Source of the DNA: Candidatus Multivoradales bacterium
GTDB taxonomy: Bacteria > Acidobacteriota > Thermoanaerobaculia > Multivoradales > J023
NCBI GenBank assembly: GCA_965250305.1
Contig: CBDFNS010000023.1
Span: 105,346-169,345 of the forward strand
DNA: 64,000 nucleotides
Direction: 5' to 3'
How positions within the stretch are numbered: position 1 is the stretch's first letter; every line of letters starts with the position of its first letter. The position numbers and the translations under genes were made by a program. Shown here piece after piece: positions 9,266 to 62,502 of the stretch. Below the pieces are notes generated by a model. That model was not told the DNA's origin. It searched no databases and saw nothing but the letters and a program-made list of their open reading frames with translations.

Positions 9266-9728
9266 GGTGTCGGCTTACTTATGGTACCTGCAGAGTTTAT
9301 GCGAATGGCGGGTCATTCTATCCGACCCGAGAGCCACACCCTATCCGACCCGAGAGCCACACCCAAAGTCCATCGATGGGAAGTTGCCATCGTGGTAGGC
9401 TCCGCGCCCTTCTCGACCATGGATTCGGGTTCGGTGGCAATGGGCCGAGCAGGGCGAGGAATTTACTTGGCCATGTGCCAAAGAGTGAATCTTTGCCTTC
9501 CGTGTAACGTTTGGTGACTCCAAGCGCCCAACGTGTACATGGGCCGACAATCAAGTGGTCAGGATGCCGTCGTGGTGTCGCGATCGTCTCGTTTGTCCGG
9601 CATTGGATTTTGTCTATTGAATTCGAGCGATGAGAGGGAACAAGGCGCGTGCGGAAGGGTGAATGGTGTTGGATCGTCAACCGTATCCATACCTGAAGCC
9701 TCGCCAGGCTGATGATAAGGAGATTCCC

Positions 9729-10025
9729 ATGTCAAAAGTAACATTACGAATCACACCGAACAGACGTCATCGTTCCGGTAGCGCGGAAGTCCACGAGGCG
9801 CCGGCGGCGATTAGCTTCAATGAGCCAGTTCGGATCCGTCTCGAGGTGCCGGCATCGGCCGTCGAGCCTGTGCGCGACGAGAATGGTGATTTGGTCTACC
9901 GATTTGACGTCGTGCTCGACATGACAGGTGCCTCTGGCAATCCCCTGGATGGGGAGATGACGATCACGGACAAGACGGGTACTCACGCTGACTCCGATGA
10001 TCAGGCCGGACCCAGTGGGCCCTAG
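9729..10025 (+). CDS. small hypothetical protein (about 98 aa) immediately upstream of, and overlapping, the CHAT gene
   Basis: ATG at 9729 preceded by AAGGAG with a 6-nt spacer; no family recognised; lower-GC segment. Confidence 0.5.
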   Translation: MSKVTLRITPNRRHRSGSAEVHEAPAAISFNEPVRIRLEVPASAVEPVRDENGDLVYRFDVVLDMTGASGNPLDGEMTITDKTGTHADSDDQAGPSGP

Positions 10026-12834
10026 GAGTCTTTGGCTTGCAGTCACCTCGATGGTGATGATTGGCATCAGCGGCGCTGTCGCCGATGCCTCTCTTGATTC
10101 CGATGGACTGTCACGATGCTGGGCTCAGGCTGATCATCCGCCGGGAACACGCCGGTTCGCTTCGTGTGTATACGACGTGGCCGCCGCTCGAGGGGCCGGG
10201 AGTCTTGAGTTAATGGGGATGGTACTCGAGAAAACGGGTGCCGACCCATGGTTGATATATCACCGTGCCTTCTTAAGAAGGGATCTCGAATCAAGGAAAG
10301 CGGCGATCGAAGAATTCGAGGTGGCGGCGAATCTGTTCCATTTTCGGAGTGATATGGTGGGTGAGGCCTGGGCTCGATGGGCCCAAGCTTCAGACCTTCG
10401 TTTTATGGGGGCGATAGAGGAATCGAAGACTCAGGTCGGTTTAGCCCGGCAGCTAGCTCAAGCGTCGGGAAGTAGGCGCGCACTTGCTGTAGTTCTGATG
10501 GAGGTGGGTCGACAAGCGATCCGATCCGGAGAGAACCTCCAAGGAGCCTACCGTGATCTCCTCGTTGTGGAGAATGAGACCGTCGACGATGTGGCAATTT
10601 GCAGTGTTCGCTGTAAGGAGACGATCGCTGCTCTTTCATATCAGCTAAGTCATTTAGAGAACAGCCTCGAGAGGTTTCGGGGAGTAGTCAACCAAGCTCG
10701 AGAAGAAGGTACTTCTAACTACGCGCACGCGCGGCTCATGTTCGCAGCCGTTCAGTGTGAATACGACGATCTTGTGAGCCAAGACCCTGAACCTGCTCGG
10801 GTTCGGGCAGTTGAAGAATTTAGGGCCGCACTTCGAGCCGCAAAGGATCATGGTTCTGTTTTCCTACAGTCAAGAAGTCATCAGCTTCTGGGTAGGGTGC
10901 TTGGTGACGATACTGAGGCCGTACTTCACTTTGAGGAGTGCGTCAATCTCGGGCCCGGCTCAGACCGGCGATCGCTGGTTGACTGTCTCAACGGGCTTGC
11001 TATTGATGCTCTTCCTAAGGACCGGAGTCTAGCGTTCGAGATGCGGGAGGCGGCGCTGGCGATCTCCAAAGAGGAGGACGATCCCTGGTTCGATGCGTTT
11101 CTCTGGCATCACGTCATGAAATTCGATTGGCTCGCACTGTCACGTGACAAAGCCATCGCACACTCGCTTCGATCTCTTGAGATCATGGAGTGGCTGAGGG
11201 TACTTCAGCCATCTATCGAAGGGCGCGCGGCAATGTTCTCGGGCTGGACCGATCCGTATCGATCGCTCGTGGGTCGATTGCTCTCGCCCAAATTCGGAAG
11301 GCGTCGTGACGACGATGTGGATTTGGCCTTCAGCGTGGTTGAACGATTGCGTGCACGCGTTCTATTGGATGTATTGACCTCCGCGCAGGCGATGCCAGCG
11401 CCACTTGGCGATGGCGATCCGTTGGAGACGGCTCGGCGCGAGGTGCTGGGTGAAATTGTCGACCTCCAACGCACTCTGTTCGAGACCGGCCTCGATGCCG
11501 ACACACGGGAGGCGCGCCGGGCCGAGCTCGAGCGACTCGAGGCCGAGGCGGCACGCTTGTCTGAGAAGATTGCGAAGGCCCACCCCGATCTCATTGCTCT
11601 CGAACGCCCCGACTTTGCCGGCCTCGACGCGGTGCGTGCGGCGCTGGGCCCCGACGAAGCCTTGCTGTCGTTCCAGATGGCTCGCGACCATGGTCTTTAT
11701 AGCGACTTCCTGGGCGGTTCGTGGCTGATGGTGGTGACCCGCGATGCCGTCGAGGTGGTGGCGTTGCCCGATGGGCGCCAATTGCGGCCGCTGGTGGCGC
11801 TTCATGCCGTGCAACTGGCGGACCGGCGCGAGGACGATCTCGGTTTGGCCCGTGACCTCCATACCCACTTGTTGGATGATGGCTTGGCGCGGCTGCCGTC
11901 GGGCATCGAGCGTTTGATTGTGGTGCCAGACGGGCCCCTGCATTTGTTGCCGTTCTCCTTACTCGCCGACGCGGCGGACGCGCCCCTGGCCAGCCGATAC
12001 CAGATCTCGGTGGTGCCGTCGGCTTCGCTGTGGCTGCGCTGGCGGCAGGCAACACAGCTGCCACGGGCCGAAGGCGCCTTGATCATGGCCGACCCCGAGA
12101 CCCTGGCAACGGCGGACCGACCTGGTGCGGACAATGGTCATCTCCGCAAGACGCCGAGCGAGCCGCCCCTGCCGCCCTTGGCGGGGGCCGAGAAGGAAGG
12201 CCGGGCGGTGGCCCGGTATCTGGGCGCGCCGAGCCGGTTGTTGGTGGGCGCGGCGGCCAGCGAGCGCGCGATCAAGCAGACCGCATTCGGCGAGGTGGGG
12301 CTGTTGCATTTTGCCGCGCACGCCATTGTGGACGAAGAAGAGCCCGACCGCTCGGCGATCATGCTCGCACCCGGTAGCGACGACGAAGACGGCTTGTTGC
12401 AGATGCGTGAGATTGTCGAGCTCGACCTCGACAATCTGGTCGTCGTTCTGTCGGCCTGCAGCAGTGCGGTTGGCCCAGTCTTGCGGGGAGAAGGCGTGAT
12501 GAGCCTGGCGCGTGGATTCTTCCAGGCGGGTGCTCGCGCGGTGGTCGGCAGTCTCTGGCCGCTCGAAGACAAGGAGGCCGCCGCCTTGTTCGATACCTTC
12601 TACCGTCGGCTGGCACGTGGCGATAGTCTCGACGGCGCCTTGCGGATTGCCCAGGAAGAGCGTCGCGGGGCGGGCGCCTCGACCGTGGACTGGGCTGGCG
12701 TCCAAGTGTTTGGTGACGGTGGCTTCGTGCCGTTTCCTGGTGGTCGCACACGAACGACTCCGTCCGCGCTTTTGGCGCTCGGTGCCGTGTTGGTGGTGGC
12801 GCTGTTGATTGTGATGGCGCGGCGCCGGGGCTAG
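9997..12834 (+). CDS. exported TPR-like + CHAT (caspase-like) domain protein with a C-terminal hydrophobic/Arg-rich tail
   Basis: Signal-peptide-like N-terminus (LWLAVTSMVMIGISGAVADA); helical repeat middle; CHAT core with His (GLLHFAAHA) and Cys (VVVLSACSSAVG) dyad; C-terminus VPFPGG...ALLALGAVLVVALLIVMARRRG; alternative start near 10051. Confidence 0.85.
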   Translation: MIRPDPVGPRSLWLAVTSMVMIGISGAVADASLDSDGLSRCWAQADHPPGTRRFASCVYDVAAARGAGSLELMGMVLEKTGADPWLIYHRAFLRRDLESRKAAIEEFEVAANLFHFRSDMVGEAWARWAQASDLRFMGAIEESKTQVGLARQLAQASGSRRALAVVLMEVGRQAIRSGENLQGAYRDLLVVENETVDDVAICSVRCKETIAALSYQLSHLENSLERFRGVVNQAREEGTSNYAHARLMFAAVQCEYDDLVSQDPEPARVRAVEEFRAALRAAKDHGSVFLQSRSHQLLGRVLGDDTEAVLHFEECVNLGPGSDRRSLVDCLNGLAIDALPKDRSLAFEMREAALAISKEEDDPWFDAFLWHHVMKFDWLALSRDKAIAHSLRSLEIMEWLRVLQPSIEGRAAMFSGWTDPYRSLVGRLLSPKFGRRRDDDVDLAFSVVERLRARVLLDVLTSAQAMPAPLGDGDPLETARREVLGEIVDLQRTLFETGLDADTREARRAELERLEAEAARLSEKIAKAHPDLIALERPDFAGLDAVRAALGPDEALLSFQMARDHGLYSDFLGGSWLMVVTRDAVEVVALPDGRQLRPLVALHAVQLADRREDDLGLARDLHTHLLDDGLARLPSGIERLIVVPDGPLHLLPFSLLADAADAPLASRYQISVVPSASLWLRWRQATQLPRAEGALIMADPETLATADRPGADNGHLRKTPSEPPLPPLAGAEKEGRAVARYLGAPSRLLVGAAASERAIKQTAFGEVGLLHFAAHAIVDEEEPDRSAIMLAPGSDDEDGLLQMREIVELDLDNLVVVLSACSSAVGPVLRGEGVMSLARGFFQAGARAVVGSLWPLEDKEAAALFDTFYRRLARGDSLDGALRIAQEERRGAGASTVDWAGVQVFGDGGFVPFPGGRTRTTPSALLALGAVLVVALLIVMARRRG

Positions 12835-14177
12835 CGACCGCCGAAGTACCAACGGAGTTCGATCAGGGCGCTGCGACCATCGGTGTTGGCGGCAAATCCC
12901 GATTGCGCCGCGGCCGGACGGTCCGCCTCGAGGTCGAGCAGCTGAACCCCGAGGCGGACGCTGTTGCGGATCTCCCAAAAGGCAGCCAGGGTCCAGGCGG
13001 TGCCGTCTTCCGTGTTGGTCTCGGCATCGGTGAAATCCTGCTCGACGGTCTCAAAACGGTCATAGCGAACCGTGATCCGGAAGCGGGCGTTGTGCCACGA
13101 CGCCAACAGGTAGCTCGCTTCGATATCGGCCTCAGCGCGGGTGCTACCAAGGATACCCATGCCGGTTTCGCCCGTGAGGAACTCGCCCACTACATCCCAT
13201 CGGGGGCTCGGGTGCCAGGTCACGCCCAGCAGGTCGATCCGCGTGCGCCAAGCGTACTCTCCGCCATGGAGCGCTCGGTCGCCGCGCGTGTCGAGATGGG
13301 TCGCCTGTATGGTCAGGGCTTCGGGTCTGACAAATCGTAGGAAGCCGCCCAATCCTGGACGACCGTCGAGGTCGCTTCCGAACGGCTGGCTTCCGTCGTC
13401 TCTTTGCGCGCGGAAGCCACCGGTGGTGAGCGAGTCCAAGGGCGGCAGGGGAACCACCTCGCCGAGCCCCGTCAGACGGTCGCCAAAGCTCCAGCCACGC
13501 CACGCGAGCAGCGCGCCGCTAGCATCGTTGCCGGCGAAGCCGATCGCACCGATTTGCAGCGAGTCCACCGATCCGAGGGCGAAGGAATAGTCCGCCAATA
13601 GGCCCGTTAACCGCACTTCTTCCGCGATCCAACTGTTGATCGCGGACAGCGTCACGGTGTAGGGCGAGGCCCACGCCGACTCGACGTTTTCCTGCGAAGT
13701 CGGTGGCAAGAAGTAACCCAAGCGCAGGCGAGCGCGGTCCGCATCGCGGAGGGTGGCCTGGCCTTCCACATACACTTCGACCAATCCGAAGCTGTCGCCG
13801 CCATGGTCGCTGGGTTCCGCACGTCCGAAGCCATGAATGTAGGCTAGGAAGTGCTCGTTCGGTTGCCACTCGAGCGCCGCATGGAGCTTGCCGGTGGCGA
13901 TCTCATCTTCGGCTCCGACCGCGTTGGCGCCCAGATCCAACCGACCGAAGCTGCCGGTGAGCCACGAGGCCCGGCTCTCGACGGCCGTGGCCCGCCCGGC
14001 CACGAAGCCGAAGAAGTTGAGTTCCTGCGCCTGCGCCACAGGTGGACTTCCGTAAACGAGCGCCGCCAATCCGCCGAGAAGCAGGGCTCCGATTGCGTGG
14101 TGTGAAGACACCCTCCGATGGCCACGAGATCGACCGTGGGGTGGCTTCGCTCCTTGGGGGATTGTTGACGCTGACAT
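12831..14177 (-). CDS. putative outer-membrane beta-barrel protein
   Basis: Signal peptide (..HHAIGALLLGGLAALVYGSPPVAQAQE), then alternating amphipathic beta-strand pattern rich in G/Y/W/R; start chosen at MSASTIP. Confidence 0.45.
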   Translation of the reverse strand: MSASTIPQGAKPPHGRSRGHRRVSSHHAIGALLLGGLAALVYGSPPVAQAQELNFFGFVAGRATAVESRASWLTGSFGRLDLGANAVGAEDEIATGKLHAALEWQPNEHFLAYIHGFGRAEPSDHGGDSFGLVEVYVEGQATLRDADRARLRLGYFLPPTSQENVESAWASPYTVTLSAINSWIAEEVRLTGLLADYSFALGSVDSLQIGAIGFAGNDASGALLAWRGWSFGDRLTGLGEVVPLPPLDSLTTGGFRAQRDDGSQPFGSDLDGRPGLGGFLRFVRPEALTIQATHLDTRGDRALHGGEYAWRTRIDLLGVTWHPSPRWDVVGEFLTGETGMGILGSTRAEADIEASYLLASWHNARFRITVRYDRFETVEQDFTDAETNTEDGTAWTLAAFWEIRNSVRLGVQLLDLEADRPAAAQSGFAANTDGRSALIELRWYFGGR

Positions 14178-14249
14178 GGTGGTCCGATTCGTCTGGCGGC
14201 ATATGGTGTCGTACATGAGGAGGCGGTTACCACATCGTTCCGAGGGTCC

Positions 14250-15076: not shown

Positions 15077-17374
15077 TTGGGTACCGGCTATACTCACCGT
15101 CTCCCTGGAGCATTGGTGGAAAATCATCTGATTCTGGCGTTTTTTGGTGTGGCAGCAATCGGCGTGGTGGCGAGTCTCGCGTTGTTCGACCTCTTCAGGG
15201 CTGAAACCGTGCGCGCTTCGTGGTCCGATTGGCTAAGCTTCGAGCCGGACGAGCTCGGTGGGTACGCACCCCGTACCTTGGTACTCGCGAGCGTGTTGGG
15301 TCTGTTCGTCGAGTTGCTCTTGATTCGGTGGGTTTCGTCCGAGATACGCATCTTTGCGTACTTCAAGAACTTCGTGCTGATCGCTTGCTTTCTCGGTTTC
15401 GGCCTTGGTTTTCACTTGTGCCGGCGGCGAATCAACCTCCTGCCGACGATGGTGCCGCTGGTGTTGCTGTGTCTGCTGGTTCGTCTGCCCTGGGAACCAC
15501 TGCGCGAGCTGGTCGCCCTGTTGCCTTCGTGGATCGGCTCCTTCGCGGAGGTCCATATGTGGGGTGTACCGGCGGTCGATGCGACCGGCGAGGCGCTCGC
15601 AGGTTTGGCAGCGGCGATGGTGATCTCGGTGCCGCTGTTCGCCATGATCGCGCTGGTGTTTGTGCCCTTCGGCCAACTGACGGGCTGGTTGATCGAGCGG
15701 GCCCCCAACGGCATCACCGCCTACTCGATCAACGTGCTGGGGAGCCTCGCCGGCATTCTCCTGTTCACCGGGTTGGCCTTCGCATCGCAACCGCCCGCCG
15801 TTTGGTTTGCCATTGCGGGCGCCTTGTTTGTGGTGTTGTTTTGGCCCAAACCCCGGTTGCGGTGGGCTGTTGTTGTGGTGTTCGGCATCTCCCTCGGGCT
15901 GTTTGCCGTCGGCCGGCCAGGTGAGGGGATCGAGGTCCATTGGTCGCCGTACCAGAAACTTGCCGTACAGCCGCAGGTCGTGGATGGCGAGACCATATCG
16001 TACGCCCTCGAGACCAACGACAGCTGGTATCAGTGGGTGATCGACCTGTCGCCCGTCTTCCTCGCGCGTCACCCAGAGCTTCTCCGCAGCGTGCCGATCG
16101 AGCGCAATGCCTACAACCTGCCCTACCGCTTCGCACCCGCGCCGGGTTCGGTCTTGGTGCTCGGTGCCGGCATGGGCAATGACGTTGCCGCCGCGCTGCG
16201 CAACGATGCCGGACGGGTGACGGCGGTCGAGATTGATCCGACCATCGTCAGGCTCGGCCGGCGATTGCATTTCGAGAAGCCCTATGCCGATCGACGGGTC
16301 ACCGTCGTGGTGGACGACGCGCGCAGCTATATCCAGAACGCGAAGGACCGTTTCGATCTGATCGTTTTCTCGCTGCTCGACTCCCATACTACGGCATCCC
16401 ATTTCTCGAACATCCGCATCGACAACTACGTCTACACCGTCGAAGCGCTGCGGGCCGCGCGCGAGCTATTGGCACCTGATGGGGTGTTTATCGTCAAGTT
16501 CCAGGTCGACCAAACGTGGATCGCCGCCCGTCTCCGTGCGCTGCTCGAAGAGGCGTTCGGCGCCCCGCCGCTCCAATTCGAAGCTGAGGCCACCCACACA
16601 ACCGGCGGCCGTTTCTTCGTCGCGGGTTCGGCGTCACGGATCGCGGCCGCGCGCAGCGATCCAGCGTTCGCCGCGTTCCTCATCGAGCACACCCGCCACG
16701 ACGGGGCGGATGCTGCCACGGGTCGGATTACGCGCACCACCGATGACTGGCCTTACTTCTACCAACACGCGCCGGGCCTACCGGCTGCCGTGCTGGTCAT
16801 CTCGGGCATCCTCGCCATTGTCGTGTGGCTGGCCGTGGGTCGTACGGGTTTGCGGGGTGGCGCAATCCGCTGGCATTTCTTCTTCCTCGGCGCGGGATTC
16901 TTGTTGGTCGAGGCCCAAGCGGTCAGCAAGATGGCGCTTTTGTTCGGCACCACCTGGCTGGTCAACGCGATCGTCATCGCCGGTATTTTGTTGTTGATCG
17001 TGGCTGCCAACCTGCTGGTCGAGAAGGGACCGCGCATACCGGTGAACGTTGCCTATTCTGGCCTCTTCGCTTCGCTTCTCGCGGCATACTTGATTCCCGT
17101 CGACTGGCTGCTGGTGGACGCGGTCGCGCCACGGATCGCCCTCGCGACCCTTGTGCTGTGCACCCCAGTCTTCTTTGCCGGCATCGTCTTCATCACGGGT
17201 TTCGCCCAAGCCGGTTTCCGCGGCGACGCCCTCGGCTCCAACCTCTTTGGTGCCCTGCTCGGTGGCCTGACCGAGAGCATCTCGCTATGGACAGGCCTGC
17301 GGTCCCTCCTCCTCGTCGCCGCCGCGCTCTACGCTCTTTCGTGGTGGGTGCGGCGGAGCGACGTCGAGCGGTAG
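15077..17374 (+). CDS. polytopic membrane protein fused to a spermidine-synthase-like (PABS) methyltransferase-fold domain
   Basis: About 7 N-terminal and 5 C-terminal TM helices flank a soluble domain with GxGxG (VLVLGAGMGNDVAAAL) and acidic DLIVFSLLDSHT motifs, as in aminopropyltransferases. Confidence 0.6.
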   Translation: MGTGYTHRLPGALVENHLILAFFGVAAIGVVASLALFDLFRAETVRASWSDWLSFEPDELGGYAPRTLVLASVLGLFVELLLIRWVSSEIRIFAYFKNFVLIACFLGFGLGFHLCRRRINLLPTMVPLVLLCLLVRLPWEPLRELVALLPSWIGSFAEVHMWGVPAVDATGEALAGLAAAMVISVPLFAMIALVFVPFGQLTGWLIERAPNGITAYSINVLGSLAGILLFTGLAFASQPPAVWFAIAGALFVVLFWPKPRLRWAVVVVFGISLGLFAVGRPGEGIEVHWSPYQKLAVQPQVVDGETISYALETNDSWYQWVIDLSPVFLARHPELLRSVPIERNAYNLPYRFAPAPGSVLVLGAGMGNDVAAALRNDAGRVTAVEIDPTIVRLGRRLHFEKPYADRRVTVVVDDARSYIQNAKDRFDLIVFSLLDSHTTASHFSNIRIDNYVYTVEALRAARELLAPDGVFIVKFQVDQTWIAARLRALLEEAFGAPPLQFEAEATHTTGGRFFVAGSASRIAAARSDPAFAAFLIEHTRHDGADAATGRITRTTDDWPYFYQHAPGLPAAVLVISGILAIVVWLAVGRTGLRGGAIRWHFFFLGAGFLLVEAQAVSKMALLFGTTWLVNAIVIAGILLLIVAANLLVEKGPRIPVNVAYSGLFASLLAAYLIPVDWLLVDAVAPRIALATLVLCTPVFFAGIVFITGFAQAGFRGDALGSNLFGALLGGLTESISLWTGLRSLLLVAAALYALSWWVRRSDVER

Positions 17375-54126: not shown

Positions 54127-54523
54127 CGGTTCCCGCGTGCGCGCCTGGTCGGGGAGGGGTCGGGAAGCATAGCATTGGCTCTTGGGGTGGTCAAGAAATG
54201 GTGTGTGTTTTCCAACGCCACTCGCCCAGCAGGCTGGGCCGCATAACCTCTGGTGTTGTTGGGTTTAGGAGTGGCCGCGCCCAAACGTGGTCCAAGAGCG
54301 GAGATGACCTGGTCGTCGCTTGTGTGTCGGCGTTCGAACGCCCCGAGAAATCGCGTCGCCCGCGCCATCACAACGGGGTAGAATGGGCTCGGCTGGCGAT
54401 TCCCGCCGGCTGCTGCACGGGGTCTGCAGGCGACGGGGGGACGTCACCTGTCGGTGCTCGGGTCGTCAGGGAGCCTGGCACCCTGGGGGCCGTAATGACG
54501 TAGCGTGTCGATCGGAGAGCGAA

Positions 54524-55600
54524 GTGGGTTCACGAATTTGCGGCACGGCGGCCTCCACCTTCGAGGCACTCGGTACACGGGATCGAGAGATCCTGACCGA
54601 CGTGATCCAAACCTATGTCACCAGCGGGCGTCCGGTAAGTTCGCGGGCGGTTTCCAAGCACCGACGGCACAAGCTCTCGGCAGCCACCATCCGCAATGTC
54701 ATGTCGGATCTGGAGGAGGCGGGACTGCTGTTGCAGCCCCACACCTCGGCTGGCCGTGTGCCCACGGAAGCGGCCTACCGGCTCTATGTCGAATGCTTGA
54801 TGGAACAGCAGTGTCTTTCGGTTGAAGAGCGTCGCTACATCGAAGAGAACCTACGGCAAGCCGGTAGTGACGGCGATGGCTTGATGACCGCCGCCAGTGA
54901 GCTGCTCTCCGAGTTGTCGCACCAAGTAGGGGTGGTGCTCAAGCCGGCGGTCGAGGAAACCGTTTTGAAGGCGATCGACTTCGTTCTCTTGAGCGAGAAA
55001 CGGGTCCTGTGCGTCGTGGTGTCAACGGCCGCCTTTATCGATAACGTGGTGATCGAATCGGATGAGTTGCTGACACGCGAAGATCTGCAGCGCATCAGCA
55101 ACTACATGAACGATAACTTCGTGGGTTTGACCCTGCCGGCGATTCGAGAACGGCTCTTGGGTCTGATGGCACGGGAGCGATCTGATGTGGACCAACAATT
55201 GGCGCGCACCATCGATCTTGCCCGCAAGGCCGTATCGCGAACCGAAACGACCTCGGTCTTGGTGCGCGGTGCTCGCGGCCTTCTCGACCAGCCCGAGCTT
55301 TCGGACGTCAACCGTGTCCAGCGCATGCTGGACACCTTTGCCGACAAGGCCCGGATGGTCAGCCTGCTCAACGAGTGCTTGACCAATGACGGTGTCCGTG
55401 TCTTCATTGGTGCCGACAGCGAGCTGACGTCTGAGCTGGAATTTAGTTTGGTCGCGACCTGTTACGGTATCGAGCGCCATACCCTGGGGACCGTTGGGAT
55501 TCTGGGGCCATCACGTATGGAGTACGCGCGGATCGTATCGCTCGTTCATTTTCTTGGACACACCTTGAGCGATACGCTCGCGGTCACCACCAAAGCCTAG
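54524..55600 (+). CDS. hrcA: heat-inducible transcription repressor HrcA
   Basis: N-terminal winged HTH (..REILTDVIQTYVTSGRPVSSRAV..) and HrcA C-terminal domain; GTG start 54524 with GGAGAG 4 nt upstream; the longer ORF-track N-terminus is unlikely. Confidence 0.8.
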   Translation: MGSRICGTAASTFEALGTRDREILTDVIQTYVTSGRPVSSRAVSKHRRHKLSAATIRNVMSDLEEAGLLLQPHTSAGRVPTEAAYRLYVECLMEQQCLSVEERRYIEENLRQAGSDGDGLMTAASELLSELSHQVGVVLKPAVEETVLKAIDFVLLSEKRVLCVVVSTAAFIDNVVIESDELLTREDLQRISNYMNDNFVGLTLPAIRERLLGLMARERSDVDQQLARTIDLARKAVSRTETTSVLVRGARGLLDQPELSDVNRVQRMLDTFADKARMVSLLNECLTNDGVRVFIGADSELTSELEFSLVATCYGIERHTLGTVGILGPSRMEYARIVSLVHFLGHTLSDTLAVTTKA

Positions 55601-55649
55601 CCTTTCGACTGCCTACGGTAGACAATAGAACGTTCGGAGCACGGGACTC

Positions 55650-56276
55650 ATGTCAGAGAACTCAGAATCCGCCCCCGAGGCACTCGACGATGCGTTCGAG
55701 CTTGATCTCGACACCCCTACGACTCTCGACGAGGCACTGGAGGACGCGGTAGCCGCGACCGAGGCCTCCGAAGCGGCTGAAGGTGAAGACGACGCCGAGG
55801 ATGACCGCGTGGCCGTCTTGGAACGCGCGCTGGCGGAGGCCCAAGAACGTCAGATGCGAACCCTCGCCGACTTCGAGAATTTTCGCAAACGGACCGAGCG
55901 CGAAAAACGGGACCTGCGTCGTTACGCGGTGATGGACCCGTTGCGGTCATTTCTCGAAGTGATGGACAACGTCCACCGCGCCATGGGGGCATCAGGTAGT
56001 GCAGAAGATCTCAAACTGGGACTCGATTTGACGGTTCGCAGTCTCGAGAAAATGTTGGCCAAGCTGGGCATCGAAGAAGTTCCTTCGGTTGGTGCCGCGT
56101 TCGATCCAACCGTGCACGAGGCCGTTTCGCGCGAAGAGTCCGCTGACATATCGGAGCCAACGGTGGTCGCCGAGATGCAAAAGGGCTACACCCTTCACGA
56201 CCGGTTGCTGCGGCCGGCAATGGTCTCCGTAGCCATGCCGGCGCCTGGGGCCAGCCCGACGGTCGACAACGCATGA
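55650..56276 (+). CDS. grpE: nucleotide exchange factor GrpE
   Basis: RTLADFENFRKRTEREK and C-terminal beta-domain. Confidence 0.9.
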   Translation: MSENSESAPEALDDAFELDLDTPTTLDEALEDAVAATEASEAAEGEDDAEDDRVAVLERALAEAQERQMRTLADFENFRKRTEREKRDLRRYAVMDPLRSFLEVMDNVHRAMGASGSAEDLKLGLDLTVRSLEKMLAKLGIEEVPSVGAAFDPTVHEAVSREESADISEPTVVAEMQKGYTLHDRLLRPAMVSVAMPAPGASPTVDNA

Positions 56277-56305
56277 TGTTCGCGCAACTGCCTGAGGCTT
56301 CCTAG

Positions 56306-58132
56306 ATGAGTAAAGTCCTGGGCATTGACCTCGGCACCACCAATAGCTGCGTGGCGGTGGTTGAGGCGTTGGCGCCCAAGGTGCTTTCCAATCGGGAAGG
56401 CAGCCGTACGACACCGTCCATTGTTGCGTTCGCCGAGGATGGTGATCGGTTGGTAGGGCAGATCGCCAAGCGTCAGGCCGTTACCAATCCGCAGAACACG
56501 ATCTACGCCGCCAAGCGGCTGATCGGTCGAAAATTCGAGGACCCGGCGGTTCAAGAAGCGCAGACCATGCTGCCGTACGTCCTCGCCGCGGCGCCCAATG
56601 GCGATATTCGAGTTGAAGTGCGGGAGCGCGTGTTCAGTCCGCAGGAGATCTCGGCGTTTGTCCTCGCGGACATGAAGTCGTTCGCGGAGGAGTCGCTCGG
56701 TGAGGTGGTTACGGAAGCGATCATCACCGTACCGGCTTATTTTGACGACTCACAGCGCCAGGCGACCAAAGATGCCGGCAAGATCGCGGGCCTCGAAGTA
56801 CTTCGGATCATCAACGAGCCCACCGCCGCCGCGCTCGCCTACGGCTTTGAGAAAGAAGAAGAAGACAAGACGATTGTGGTGTTCGATCTTGGTGGTGGCA
56901 CGTTTGATGTGTCGATTCTCGAGCTGTCCAAGGGCATTTTCGAGGTTCGGAGCACCGCTGGCGACAGCCACCTGGGTGGTGAGGACTTCGATCGCCAAAT
57001 CATGGAGTGGCTGATCGCCGAGTTCGACAAGGAATACCAAATCGACCTGCGCGACGATCGGATGGCGCTACAGCGACTCAAGGAATCCGCCGAGCGCGCC
57101 AAGTGCGAGCTGTCGACCGCCGAAGAAGTGGAAATCAACCTGCCGTTCATTTCCGCCAATGACTCAGGGCCGTTGCACCTCGCCCGGACGCTCACTCGGA
57201 CCCGTTTCGAGGACTTGGTCGACGAGTTGGTCAAGCGCACCGAAGGCCCGTGCTTCGAGGCACTCAATGGTGCCGACATGGACCCCAGCGAGGTCGACGA
57301 GGTGCTGTTGGTGGGTGGCCAAACGCGGTCTCCAATCGTGGCTCAGGCGGTCCAGCGGATTTTCAGCCGACCGGCCAACCGAGAGATCAATCCTGACGAA
57401 GTGGTGGCAATGGGCGCCGCCATTCAAGCCGGGATCTTGCGCGGTGACATCAAGGATGTGGTGCTGTTGGACATCACACCGCTCTCGATCGGTATCGAAA
57501 CCCAGGGCGGTCTCTTCACTCCCTTGATTAGCCGCAATGCAACGATCCCGACCAAGAACACACAGATCTTCACGACGGTTATCGACAACCAAGACATCGT
57601 CGAGATTCATGTGTTGCAAGGTGAACGTGAGATCGCCACCGAAAACCGTTCGTTGGGACGATTCGAGCTCGTTGGCATTCCGTCAGCACCGCGGGGTACG
57701 CCGCAGATCGAAGTGACCTTTGCCATCGACTCCAACGGCATCGTCAACGTTTCGGCCCGCGACTTGGCGACCAACCAGCAGCAGAGCATCGAGGTAAATC
57801 CGTCGAGTGGTCTGTCGACCGCCGAGGTCGACCGTATGGTGAAGGAGGCCCAAACTTACGCTGACCAAGATGCCGAGCGGCGTGAGATTCGCCGCATCAA
57901 GAATCGTGTGGAAGGTCTTATCTACAGCAACGAGCGGGTGTTTGAGCAGTACAGCGGTGGCATGGACGAGGCCCGGCGCAAGGCGACCAATCAAGCGTTG
58001 CTGCGGGCGCGCATGGCCCTCAGCGAGAGCGATCGGGATGACCTCGAAGCGGCCGTCTACGACCTCAACGCGGTGTCTATGACGCTGTCGAAGATCATGC
58101 TCGAGGCCACGGGCGACGACAAGAACAAGTAG
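56306..58132 (+). CDS. dnaK: molecular chaperone DnaK (Hsp70)
   Basis: IDLGTTNS, DLGGGTFD, EVLLVGG motifs throughout. Confidence 0.95.
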   Translation: MSKVLGIDLGTTNSCVAVVEALAPKVLSNREGSRTTPSIVAFAEDGDRLVGQIAKRQAVTNPQNTIYAAKRLIGRKFEDPAVQEAQTMLPYVLAAAPNGDIRVEVRERVFSPQEISAFVLADMKSFAEESLGEVVTEAIITVPAYFDDSQRQATKDAGKIAGLEVLRIINEPTAAALAYGFEKEEEDKTIVVFDLGGGTFDVSILELSKGIFEVRSTAGDSHLGGEDFDRQIMEWLIAEFDKEYQIDLRDDRMALQRLKESAERAKCELSTAEEVEINLPFISANDSGPLHLARTLTRTRFEDLVDELVKRTEGPCFEALNGADMDPSEVDEVLLVGGQTRSPIVAQAVQRIFSRPANREINPDEVVAMGAAIQAGILRGDIKDVVLLDITPLSIGIETQGGLFTPLISRNATIPTKNTQIFTTVIDNQDIVEIHVLQGEREIATENRSLGRFELVGIPSAPRGTPQIEVTFAIDSNGIVNVSARDLATNQQQSIEVNPSSGLSTAEVDRMVKEAQTYADQDAERREIRRIKNRVEGLIYSNERVFEQYSGGMDEARRKATNQALLRARMALSESDRDDLEAAVYDLNAVSMTLSKIMLEATGDDKNK

Positions 58133-58180
58133 CGTGAATCGCCCGCAGCGGGCAATCGGAAGGGATCGGAACCGTACCCA

Positions 58181-59287
58181 ATGAGCAAACGAGATTACTA
58201 CGAGGTCTTGGGCGTCGCCCGGGATGTTGCCGAGAAAGACATCAAGTCGGCCTATCGGAAGCTGGCGATCAAATACCACCCGGACCGCAATCCCGATGAT
58301 GCGAGTGCGGAAGAGAAGTTCAAGGAAGCAGCGGAGGCTTATGCGGTGATCTCCGACCCCGAGAAGCGAGCGCGCTACGACCGGTTCGGTCACCAAGCGG
58401 CAGCCAGCGGTGGCTTTGACCCCAACGCATTCTCGGATTTCTCGGACATTCTCGGTGACTTGTTTGGCTTTGGGGATGTCTTTGGCGGTCGCCGTCGTGG
58501 AGCACGGGGTGTTCCCGGTGCCGATCTGCGCTACGAGCTCTCGATGACCTTCGAAGAAGCGGCATTCGGCACCAAGACCACGATCAAGTTTCCACGACTG
58601 GAAACCTGCGAAACGTGTACCGGGTCGGGCAGCTCCGATGGCAAGCTGAATCCCTGTGGCACCTGCGGTGGTCAGGGGCAGGTGCGGTATACCCAAGGTT
58701 TCTTCAGCGTCGCGCGACCGTGTCCACAGTGCCACGGGGAAGGGCAGGTGGTTCAGGACCCGTGCAAGGCCTGTAAAGGCGAAGGGCGGACGGAGACGAA
58801 CCGCCAGCTCGACGTTACCGTTCCTTCCGGGGTCGACAACGGCTTGCGGTTGCGCCTGCGAGGCGAAGGTGAGCATGGACGGCGGGGCGGGCCGCCAGGC
58901 GATCTCGACGTACTGCTGCGGGTCGCGCCCCATGAACGGCTCGAGCGCGATGGCGCCGACGTTCTCGACCAACAAGCCTTGGCTTACCCTCAACTGGTGC
59001 TCGGTACGTCCTTGGAGATCGAGACCTTGCATGGTGTCGAGCAGTTGCGGATCCCCGCTGGAACCCAGAGCGGTCACACTTTCCGCTTGCGGGGTAAGGG
59101 GATCGACAAGCTGAGCCACGACGGCCGCGGTGATCACGTGGTGCATGTGGTGCTGCACGTACCGAAACCCAAGGACCTCGATGACGCTCAGATCGAGCAG
59201 TTGCGGGCGATGGCTGAGCTCGAAGGCCTGCAGGTGGGCATCGGCGGCAGTAGGGTGATCGACAAGGTCAAGGGGCTGTTTCATTGA
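58181..59287 (+). CDS. dnaJ: molecular chaperone DnaJ
   Basis: J-domain with HPD (YHPDRN), G/F region, four CxxCxGxG zinc-finger repeats. Confidence 0.9.
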   Translation: MSKRDYYEVLGVARDVAEKDIKSAYRKLAIKYHPDRNPDDASAEEKFKEAAEAYAVISDPEKRARYDRFGHQAAASGGFDPNAFSDFSDILGDLFGFGDVFGGRRRGARGVPGADLRYELSMTFEEAAFGTKTTIKFPRLETCETCTGSGSSDGKLNPCGTCGGQGQVRYTQGFFSVARPCPQCHGEGQVVQDPCKACKGEGRTETNRQLDVTVPSGVDNGLRLRLRGEGEHGRRGGPPGDLDVLLRVAPHERLERDGADVLDQQALAYPQLVLGTSLEIETLHGVEQLRIPAGTQSGHTFRLRGKGIDKLSHDGRGDHVVHVVLHVPKPKDLDDAQIEQLRAMAELEGLQVGIGGSRVIDKVKGLFH

Positions 59288-61633: not shown

Positions 61634-62502
61634 TCAAGCTGTGTTTTCGTGTCTGATCAGACTCTTGTCCCTGACGGCGAAAAGTGCGCGGTTCTCGGCT
61701 CGTCGCACTTGATCCACGGCCTTGCCGAGGTGCATGGCAACGTGGAACTTGTCGAATGCGATCTTCTCGTTGGCGTCGGGAAGAGCGGCTAAAGTGTCCG
61801 ATATGTACGGTCCCCACATGTCCATGGCGACGCTCTCGATCTGACCCAATTCGCCTTCGCTGAAGCTGTCGTAGTAGGCGCCAAGGGCTCCCTTCTTGTG
61901 GCCATCGGTGACGTATTGGACGCATCCGGTCTCCAGATCCGCGACCACCGTCACGTATTCATGCCGCTTCTGGAACGACGTCTCGTCAACGCCTATCCGC
62001 CGAGGCACTTTCAAATCACGACGTGCAAGCCCACGCCGGACCGCACGCTCCATCACCCCACTCACCTGGTCCCAAGTGACGTCGAGCTGCCGCGCCACGG
62101 CTGAGATCGTCGCTTCCTGGAGCCAGTCGATGATCAACGCTTCAAAAGCGCAGTGAAGCCCGAACCTGGATCCGACCACGGAACGCTCATCGTCTTGACC
62201 CCGTGCTCCGGGCAACGAACCCGTGGGACATCGGCGACCAGAATCGTCTTGTACTGGCAGGTCGGGAGGTGCCGCCACCGGCGCCAACGGCTGTCGTACC
62301 GACTGCTCGCCTCTCCACATTCAGGGCACGACAAAGCTTGCTCGCGCCCATGCTCGACAAAAACCTCCACCTCGCCATCACCAAGCCGGAGGGATACGTC
62401 CGTCACCTTCCAAGGCGCTGAAACGCCAAGGATCTGCCCATATAGGTCGGTATCTCGCATTCACCGAGCCTACACCGACCCACCATCTCTCCTGAAGAGC
62501 CA
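61634..62502 (-). mobile_element. ISL3-family insertion sequence remnant: left inverted repeat + frameshifted, C-terminally truncated transposase
   Basis: Transposase N-terminus with a CPECG zinc finger (62134-62460) continues in another frame (61634-62320; ..VDETSFQKRHEYVTVVADLETG..) and stops short of a full ISL3 transposase. On the minus strand the element begins GGCTCTTCAGG at 62502, matching the ISL3 terminal repeat. The right end is missing (abuts parA). Confidence 0.7.

Follow-up and report, generated by a model that had tools for sequence, protein, structure and literature searches.

Two overlapping open reading frames (ORFs) on the forward strand of a 64-kb stretch of contig CBDFNS010000023.1 from a Candidatus Multivoradales bacterium (the whole stretch is called the window in the following) were analysed, a small one that codes for a protein of 98 amino acids (9729-10025) and a larger one that codes for a protein of 945 amino acids (9997-12834). 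Both had been noticed in a preliminary description of this DNA, and both are present. The larger ORF encodes a genuine CHAT-fold protein with an intact His/Cys dyad. We think it on balance probable that this protein is a membrane-anchored, periplasmic protease composed of a tetratricopeptide repeat (TPR)-like and a CHAT domain, that it belongs to a family resembling a split version of the anti-sigma factor DdvA, and that the copy in the window is coupled to the 98-aa gene.

Domain content and predicted topology of the CHAT protein

The Pfam model CHAT (PF12770) matched residues 617-907 of the 945-aa protein with 208.6 bits (cutoff 24; E = 1.8e-61), and the catalytic residues His775 (12319-12321, in the motif HFAAHA) and Cys821 (12457-12459, in LSAC) were invariant in alignments of 4 and of 50 sequences, in agreement with the CHAT protease proposed before. 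Pfam, the alignments, AlphaFold2 and Foldseek delimit a caspase-fold CHAT domain of residues 554-907 (11656-12717), which, judged from its sequence, should be catalytically competent and would give the protein a protease activity. The preliminary description had further assigned TPRs to the protein; Pfam did not find any in the 945 residues, but the AlphaFold2 model (pLDDT, the predicted local confidence, 83.9; pTM, the predicted global fold score, 0.85) showed approximately 26 paired helices from residue 35 to 534, followed by the alpha/beta CHAT domain (554-906 in the model), a short linker of low confidence and a terminal helix (residues 922-944), with a pLDDT below 50 for residues 1-35. 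The paired helices (10099-11598) make up a TPR-like alpha-solenoid, as also seen by Foldseek and by homology within the family. In a Foldseek search against the PDB the first match was the anti-sigma factor DdvA (8rot_A, E = 4e-14), followed by Csx29 (6e-14) and separase (4e-12), and its matches to the helical part were the TPR regions of DdvA, Csx29 and LGN. A phmmer search of the PDB with the 945-aa protein gave no match; a profile of the family found DdvA by sequence as well (8rot_B, E = 1.7e-25), which was the best sequence match of the CHAT domain there.

The best matches among 5.8 billion protein clusters were P0001 (38% identity, 922 aa) and P0002 (42% identity), and no close relative was found; the other matches of this search covered mainly the CHAT domain. 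When one genome per species was scanned, approximately 20 loci encoding relatives with 32-49% identity were revealed, nearly all of them in metagenome-assembled genomes of Thermoanaerobaculia or other Acidobacteriota. The DNA of the window is acidobacterial as well, judged from the best named matches of its DnaK (77-84% identity). All family members with complete ends have the same architecture: a signal peptide-like N-terminus, a helical domain, the CHAT domain and a tail.

The N-terminus of the window protein, MIRPDPVGPRSLWLAVTSMVMIGISGAVA|DA, resembles a Sec signal peptide in its sequence features. Cleavage is predicted after AVA (AVA|DA), which would remove residues 1-29 (9997-10083); an alternative start of the CHAT gene is a GTG at 10015. 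The Sec-type signal peptide had been predicted before, and a hydrophobic N-terminus, usually with an AXA site, was found in essentially all full-length members of the family. It is followed after 10-15 residues by two cysteines spaced C-x14-17-C, which correspond to C41 and C57 in the window protein (10117-10167) and probably form a disulfide in the periplasm. An automated search flagged a cysteine pair in all 19 family N-termini (19/19) but picked the wrong cysteine in loci L010 and L026; by inspection, the conserved pair is clear in L026 and less certain in L010.

At the other end, the CHAT domain of the family closes with WAGxVVLGDG and continues with xxVP[LFVM]PGG[RK], a variable stretch of 5-12 residues, frequently rich in tryptophan, a hydrophobic helix of about 18-20 residues and a cluster of Arg or Lys. 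In the window protein this tail reads VPFPGG-RTRTTPS-ALLALGAVLVVALLIVMA-RRRG, so that the spacer behind VPFPGG comprises 7 and not, as counted before, 9 residues. The juxtamembrane motif VPFPGG (12727-12744; family consensus GDGxxVP[LFVM]PGG[RK]) contains V911, P912 and P914, which were invariant across 19 family tails. A predicted transmembrane helix (residues 924-941) with a mean Kyte-Doolittle hydropathy of 3.03 over 18 residues and a putatively cytoplasmic RRRG tail follow (together 12766-12831), as indicated by hydropathy, AlphaFold2 and conservation within the family; the hydrophobic helix and the arginine cluster of the preliminary description are thus present, and they are conserved in the family. 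Because of the conserved cysteine pair and the positive-inside tail, the 945-aa protein is probably a type I membrane protein whose bulk lies in the periplasm. It is probably exported and tethered to the inner membrane via its C-terminal helix, which would hold the protease domain approximately 15 residues away from the outer face of this membrane.

Export had been regarded as unusual for a CHAT protein. This view has to be given up, since signal peptide-like N-termini were found in 49 of 74 CHAT relatives from the protein cluster search and the structure of a periplasmic TPR-CHAT domain, that of DdvA, has already been solved; exported CHAT proteases are common in Acidobacteriota. What distinguishes the subfamily described here is the C-terminal anchor, which was present in only 3 of the 74 relatives.

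Sigma factor context of the family and relation to DdvA

In nine of 20 loci of the family (L009, L010, L013, L015 and L017-L021), genes for a sigma factor of the extracytoplasmic function (ECF) type and a zf-HC2 anti-sigma factor are located directly upstream of the CHAT gene and on the same strand, the pair lying upstream of the CHAT match by approximately 1-2 kb; in eight of the nine loci the sigma gene as such was recovered. These sigma factors carry Sigma70_r2 and r4_2 domains. The adjacent anti-sigma factors have a single transmembrane helix besides the zf-HC2 motif (HxxxCxxC), and their periplasmic domain of about 100 residues, for which no Pfam match was found, is conserved. Since the ECF-linked loci are spread over several branches of the family tree, most of them deep, and the window protein groups, albeit weakly, with an ECF-linked member, the tree suggests that the ECF linkage is ancestral to the family. 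Relatives in which zf-HC2, TPR and CHAT are fused in one polypeptide do exist (P0062 and, by its N-terminus, P0051); such fusions occur in Thermoanaerobaculia and in other metagenomic bacteria.

DdvA of Myxococcus is an anti-sigma factor with a solved periplasmic TPR-CHAT domain, and its authors propose that the periplasmic CHAT domain clips the juxtamembrane linker in trans, as the site-1 step before RseP (PMC11506125). DdvA-like proteins were reported only from Myxococcota and a single species of Comamonas (PMC11506125). The window protein shares with DdvA the periplasmic (here predicted) TPR-solenoid and CHAT domain and the His-Cys dyad; DdvA is its best structural match, and about half of its relatives adjoin an ECF sigma gene. 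Several features set the two apart. The identity in the structural alignment is approximately 16%. DdvA has a zinc-finger anti-sigma domain, whereas zf-HC2 does not match the window protein, and it has an N-terminal transmembrane helix in place of the predicted cleavable signal peptide and C-terminal anchor. The anti-sigma function is fused in DdvA but is encoded as a separate protein, with a small periplasmic domain of its own, beside the relatives of the window protein. Finally, a DdvA-type anti-sigma factor would have the gene of its cognate ECF sigma factor beside it, and the window copy has neither a sigma nor an anti-sigma neighbour. The preliminary description had stated that the protein could not be matched to a described system; its fold does resemble the periplasmic part of DdvA, but the anchored CHAT subfamily, although related to this module, was previously undescribed. 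CHAT proteins are also known from ECF neighbourhoods, for example of group ECF54, which was described without an anti-sigma factor (PMC8999054). The linkage of a CHAT gene to an ECF sigma gene in 9 of 20 relatives recalls this group, but in the relatives of the window protein a zf-HC2 anti-sigma gene lies between the sigma and the CHAT gene.

We therefore propose the following model for the family. The protein would consist, in this order, of a cleavable Sec signal peptide, a disulfide-forming cysteine pair, a TPR-like solenoid, a CHAT protease, a VPxPGG linker, a transmembrane helix and a basic stub. The ancestral operon, which about half of the related loci would still have, may have run from the ECF sigma gene via the gene for a zinc-finger transmembrane anti-sigma factor to the CHAT gene, and the family would be a split DdvA, with the anti-sigma factor and the periplasmic TPR-CHAT part on separate proteins. 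Most likely, the ancestral role was that of a membrane-tethered periplasmic sensor or protease that cleaves the anti-sigma factor or gates its cleavage, which would be site-1-type proteolysis ahead of RseP. By analogy with DdvA, the C-terminal anchor would put the CHAT domain in a good position to cut a separate anti-sigma factor in its periplasmic linker. The copy in the window would have lost its sigma and anti-sigma neighbours and would now be accompanied by a beta-rich protein of 98 residues with a predicted cytoplasmic location. For DdvA, site-1 cleavage by the CHAT domain is so far hypothetical, as a single polypeptide is sensor, protease and substrate at once; a naturally split version would make it testable in trans, and the family offers approximately 20 examples of a separate membrane-anchored TPR-CHAT protein, for which the separate anti-sigma factor makes such an experiment possible.

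Two further observations were made at the family loci. A small DUF2784 membrane protein is encoded directly after the CHAT gene and convergent to it in five of them, in each case on the minus strand (L001, 14036-14431; L004, 5678-6154; L006, 8739-9107; L008, 11093-11461; L014, 1572-1946). Anchored CHAT paralogues in tandem were found in L001 (8001-10769 and 11299-14091) and also in L005 and L016.

The overlapping 98-aa gene, its leader and the alternatives considered

The small gene (9729-10025) codes for a beta-rich protein with an acidic C-terminal tail that ends with GPSGP. A Shine-Dalgarno sequence, AAGGAG (9714-9719), is located 6 nt before the ATG, and the stop codon TAG (10023-10025) is reached 29 nt into the 945-aa ORF, so that the 98-aa ORF with its good ribosome-binding site and its stop within the CHAT frame was described correctly before. 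The overlap (9997-10025) comprises 29 nt, with the CHAT gene in the +1 frame, and is a likely site of translational coupling. The coding score of the small ORF was 0.077 bits/codon, far above the wrong-frame range (95th percentile -0.18) and at the 5th percentile of chunks of real genes. When 1.84 billion representatives were searched exhaustively with HMMER, the only matches were the protein itself, one homologue (P0076, 98 aa, 51% identity) and weak matches to Ig-like (He_PIG/Big_9) repeats in two giant proteins; the two small proteins form two clusters with one member each. P0076 is encoded on a contig of 575 bp (L026). There, as in the window, the small ORF overlaps the following ORF in the +1 frame, by 29-41 nt depending on the ATG. 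The product of this downstream ORF begins with a signal peptide and contains DDCW...FAECVYD, which identifies it as a homologue of the N-terminus of the CHAT protein of the window. Between the two loci, the rates of non-synonymous (dN) and synonymous (dS) substitution in the small ORF were 0.40 and 1.56, respectively (dN/dS = 0.25), and the five GPSGP codons inside the overlap differ at third positions only. The Shine-Dalgarno sequence is kept in L026 as well. A mechanical list of ORFs starts the small ORF at an ATG at 9663 (120 aa), but the corresponding ATG of L026 is out of frame and runs into a TGA, and the 98-aa form is therefore the conserved one. The small ORF is a real gene under purifying selection, and the overlapping pair of small ORF and CHAT gene is conserved, in these two loci only.

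The two genes are probably co-transcribed and probably translationally coupled. Co-translation, as suggested earlier, is thus plausible inasmuch as the overlap is kept in L026, but the small gene is absent from about 20 other loci of the family: a tblastn search beside CHAT relatives gave no match in 25 loci, and a scan of the JGI metagenomes with the small-protein alignment gave no further copy. Conservation of the pair is accordingly limited to one other locus and does not extend to the remainder of the family. The small protein does not contain a signal peptide or a hydrophobic segment and is predicted from its sequence to be cytoplasmic; Pfam and NCBIfam gave no family match. AlphaFold2 predicted an all-beta structure, in line with the earlier call for a structure prediction, but with a pLDDT of 57, which is too low for a fold search. 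A remnant of the periplasmic domain of the anti-sigma factor was considered as its origin and rejected (hhalign probability 0.5%, nothing in Pfam).

Upstream of the small gene lies a conserved non-coding leader (9610-9728), in which an SD-like GGAAGGG precedes the ATG at 9663. This ATG opens an upstream ORF of 16 codons in L026, whereas in the window it runs in frame into the small ORF. The leader is 83% identical (100/121 nt) to positions 1-121 of L026 and includes a perfect core of 26 nt, whereas the adjacent coding sequences are 61% identical, with 42% at third codon positions and saturated synonymous sites. Conservation of the leader next to saturated synonymous sites implies some function at the nucleotide level, for example that of an operator or an RNA site or the coding of a leader peptide. 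Rfam gave no match to the leader, folding of its RNA was no better than that of shuffled sequences (z-scores +0.2 and +0.85), a convincing promoter was not seen, a sigma-70-like or ECF-like pattern shared with the upstream regions of the sigma genes was not found, and a scan with a 20-nt core of the leader gave no further copies. The small gene with its leader is rare, with two loci among approximately 15 billion proteins. That the CHAT protein acts as a split DdvA in trans and has been rewired in the window, the coupled 98-aa protein and the conserved leader taking the place of sigma and anti-sigma factor, appears doubtful to us, although it deserves mention: if true, the rewired module would control or use a membrane-tethered caspase-like protease in a manner not described before. 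For now, the overlapping small gene and its leader are curiosities and do not amount to a system.

Several points weigh against the anchored periplasmic TPR-CHAT protease of a split-DdvA-like family that we favour. Its topology is based on sequence heuristics and conservation, protease activity and substrate are what we infer for it, and for the signalling role we extrapolate from relatives with an identity of only 32-49%. An ECF sigma or anti-sigma gene is not found near the CHAT gene of the window, and P0002, as called in L003, lacks the N-terminal half including the signal peptide. Since the small protein has no signal peptide, its direct interaction with the protease is not expected, which leaves the conserved coupling unaccounted for. 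The tail, on the other hand, could be read as a new sorting signal of the exosortase type, near to the PEP-CTERM-like signal of the preliminary description, with a dedicated transpeptidase that cuts near VPFPGG and attaches the protease to the cell surface or releases it there. A protein with an N-terminal signal peptide and, in its tail, a motif, a hydrophobic helix and clustered arginines has the layout of all such sorting signals, and the signal peptide (predicted), the C-terminal transmembrane helix and the basic cluster of exosortase substrates (TIGR02595 and related models) are all there. The conservation of VPxPGG, with V, P and P invariant in the 19 tails, is stronger than a plain anchor would seem to need, and exosortases are common in Acidobacteriota. 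However, the NCBIfam sorting-domain models gave no match above cutoff with the full protein, and with the tail alone the best match was LPXTG_anchor (13.6 bits, below the cutoff of 15.9), with none for PEP-CTERM at E <= 10. A PEP motif abutting the helix is missing; instead, VPFPGG is separated from it by a polar spacer of 7 residues, and by 5-12 residues in the family. Sorting tags are typically found on many unrelated proteins, but in the 371 kb of the window and 26 loci all ORFs that end with VPxP(G), a transmembrane helix and a basic cluster were members of the CHAT family. Exosortase, rhombosortase and sortase domains were not found by Pfam among the approximately 43 larger ORFs of the window, and clustering of the neighbours across 20 related loci did not reveal a recurrent sortase-like gene. 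A search of 5.8 billion proteins with a tail profile returned a single fragment of 44 residues; it was insensitive and is uninformative, since known family members were not recovered. We regard a sorting signal served by a dedicated, unlinked enzyme as quite unlikely; the best interpretation of the tail is a membrane anchor that is specific to the family and carries a conserved juxtamembrane motif, and not a shared sorting tag.

The small protein could also be a partner of the CHAT protein like securin, that is, a pseudo-substrate inhibitor, a chaperone or a substrate, which translational coupling would keep at a fixed ratio. Overlap and gene order are indeed kept in the only other locus with the small gene, purifying selection extends to the C-terminal GPSGP within the overlap, and securin controls separase, a structural relative of the CHAT protein. 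The partner proposed in the preliminary description is thus a real gene, but a physical partnership with a periplasmic protease is not supported by the topology: without a signal peptide or hydrophobic segment on the small protein, the two would be in different compartments. Moreover, the small gene is absent beside about 20 other family members and its product is not similar to the periplasmic domain of the anti-sigma factor at the equivalent position (hhalign probability 0.5%), so that we consider such a partner unlikely. A fusion of the two ORFs by a programmed +1 frameshift, which would turn the "signal peptide" into an internal anchor and give a topology like that of DdvA, is suggested by the +1 relation and the overlap in both loci and by relatives such as P0062, in which N-terminal cytoplasmic domains are fused to TPR-CHAT. 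Against this, GPSGP and the stop codon are kept through synonymous changes, which argues that translation normally ends at the stop of the small ORF; further, no slippery motif was found and the overlap differs in length between the loci, so that a frameshift is hardly credible to us. Very improbable, too, is a cytoplasmic or defence effector like Csx29 of Craspase or the proteases of CBASS and gasdermin modules, which the preliminary description had named for comparison. The TPR-CHAT fold and the dyad are common to the window protein, Csx29 and separase (Foldseek E 1e-11 to 1e-14), and PADLOC gave weak matches to BovA on the catalytic region. Csx29 and separase are, however, cytoplasmic and have Cas7-11/Csx30 or securin as partners, whereas the window holds no such genes and its protein is predicted to be exported and membrane-anchored, with signal peptide, cysteine pair and C-terminal anchor conserved. 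The Csx29 model NF041237 reached 12.5 bits (cutoff 300), Pfam scans of the window did not reveal cas, CBASS or gasdermin genes, and the neighbours of the CHAT gene are ordinary chromosomal genes; a link to known defence systems was thus not found.

Base composition and neighbouring genes

A lower GC content of the small ORF and the 5' third of the CHAT gene had been noticed and is borne out by the GC profile and by the GC content at third codon positions (GC3). The GC content is 0.52-0.58 from approximately 9400 to 11200 and 0.64-0.72 downstream thereof. Within the CHAT gene, GC3 amounts to 0.47-0.57 over the first ~400 codons (9997-11200), compared to 0.74-0.83 in the CHAT half; the reference, a set of 251 stretches of 150 codons each that were taken from 38 other genes of the window, has a mean of 0.734, a standard deviation of 0.058 and a minimum of 0.513. 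A low GC content is also seen in the small ORF (GC3 0.63) and in the leader (GC 0.52). The rise in GC3 is gradual, from approximately 10900 to 11350, and the 5' part of the solenoid is anomalously low up to approximately 11300. In the relatives, GC3 of the N-terminal half is up to 0.12 below that of the C-terminal half in all but two of 13 genes, a much weaker trend. The drop in GC is genuine and exceeds what chance would give, but it does not mark a mosaic or acquired N-terminal module as had been suggested: the N-terminal half shows homology to the family's N-domain (tblastn E down to 6e-20, 24-31% identity), and only its composition is odd. The extreme GC3 reflects either a stretch that was recombined from a relative with lower GC or a local relaxation of codon selection.

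Upstream of the gene pair are divergent genes for a DUF4388 response regulator and BrkB; downstream of the CHAT gene are a convergent ORF of 461 codons without an assigned family and genes for a DUF6503 protein and a membrane spermine-synthase-like protein. None of these neighbours was syntenic with the family loci. The divergent intergenic region of 730 bp between the DUF4388 response regulator gene and the small ORF contains a perfect tandem duplication of 23 bp (9318-9363; CTATCCGACCCGAGAGCCACACC, twice). The 461-aa ORF (12831-14216, minus strand) overlaps the CHAT gene by 4 nt at the stop codons. It has a signal peptide-like N-terminus and a normal GC3 (0.755), it did not match Pfam, NCBIfam or PADLOC, and it may code for an outer-membrane beta-barrel. 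The spermine-synthase-like protein is a polytopic membrane protein of 765 residues (15077-17374, plus strand) with a spermine/spermidine-synthase-like methyltransferase domain; it matched the PADLOC model 'mad2' (E = 7e-16), probably via the shared methyltransferase fold. Near the end of the window, a fragment of an ISL3-family transposase (61634-62320, minus strand) adjoins the hrcA-grpE-dnaK-dnaJ operon (54320-59287) and a gene for an M32 carboxypeptidase.

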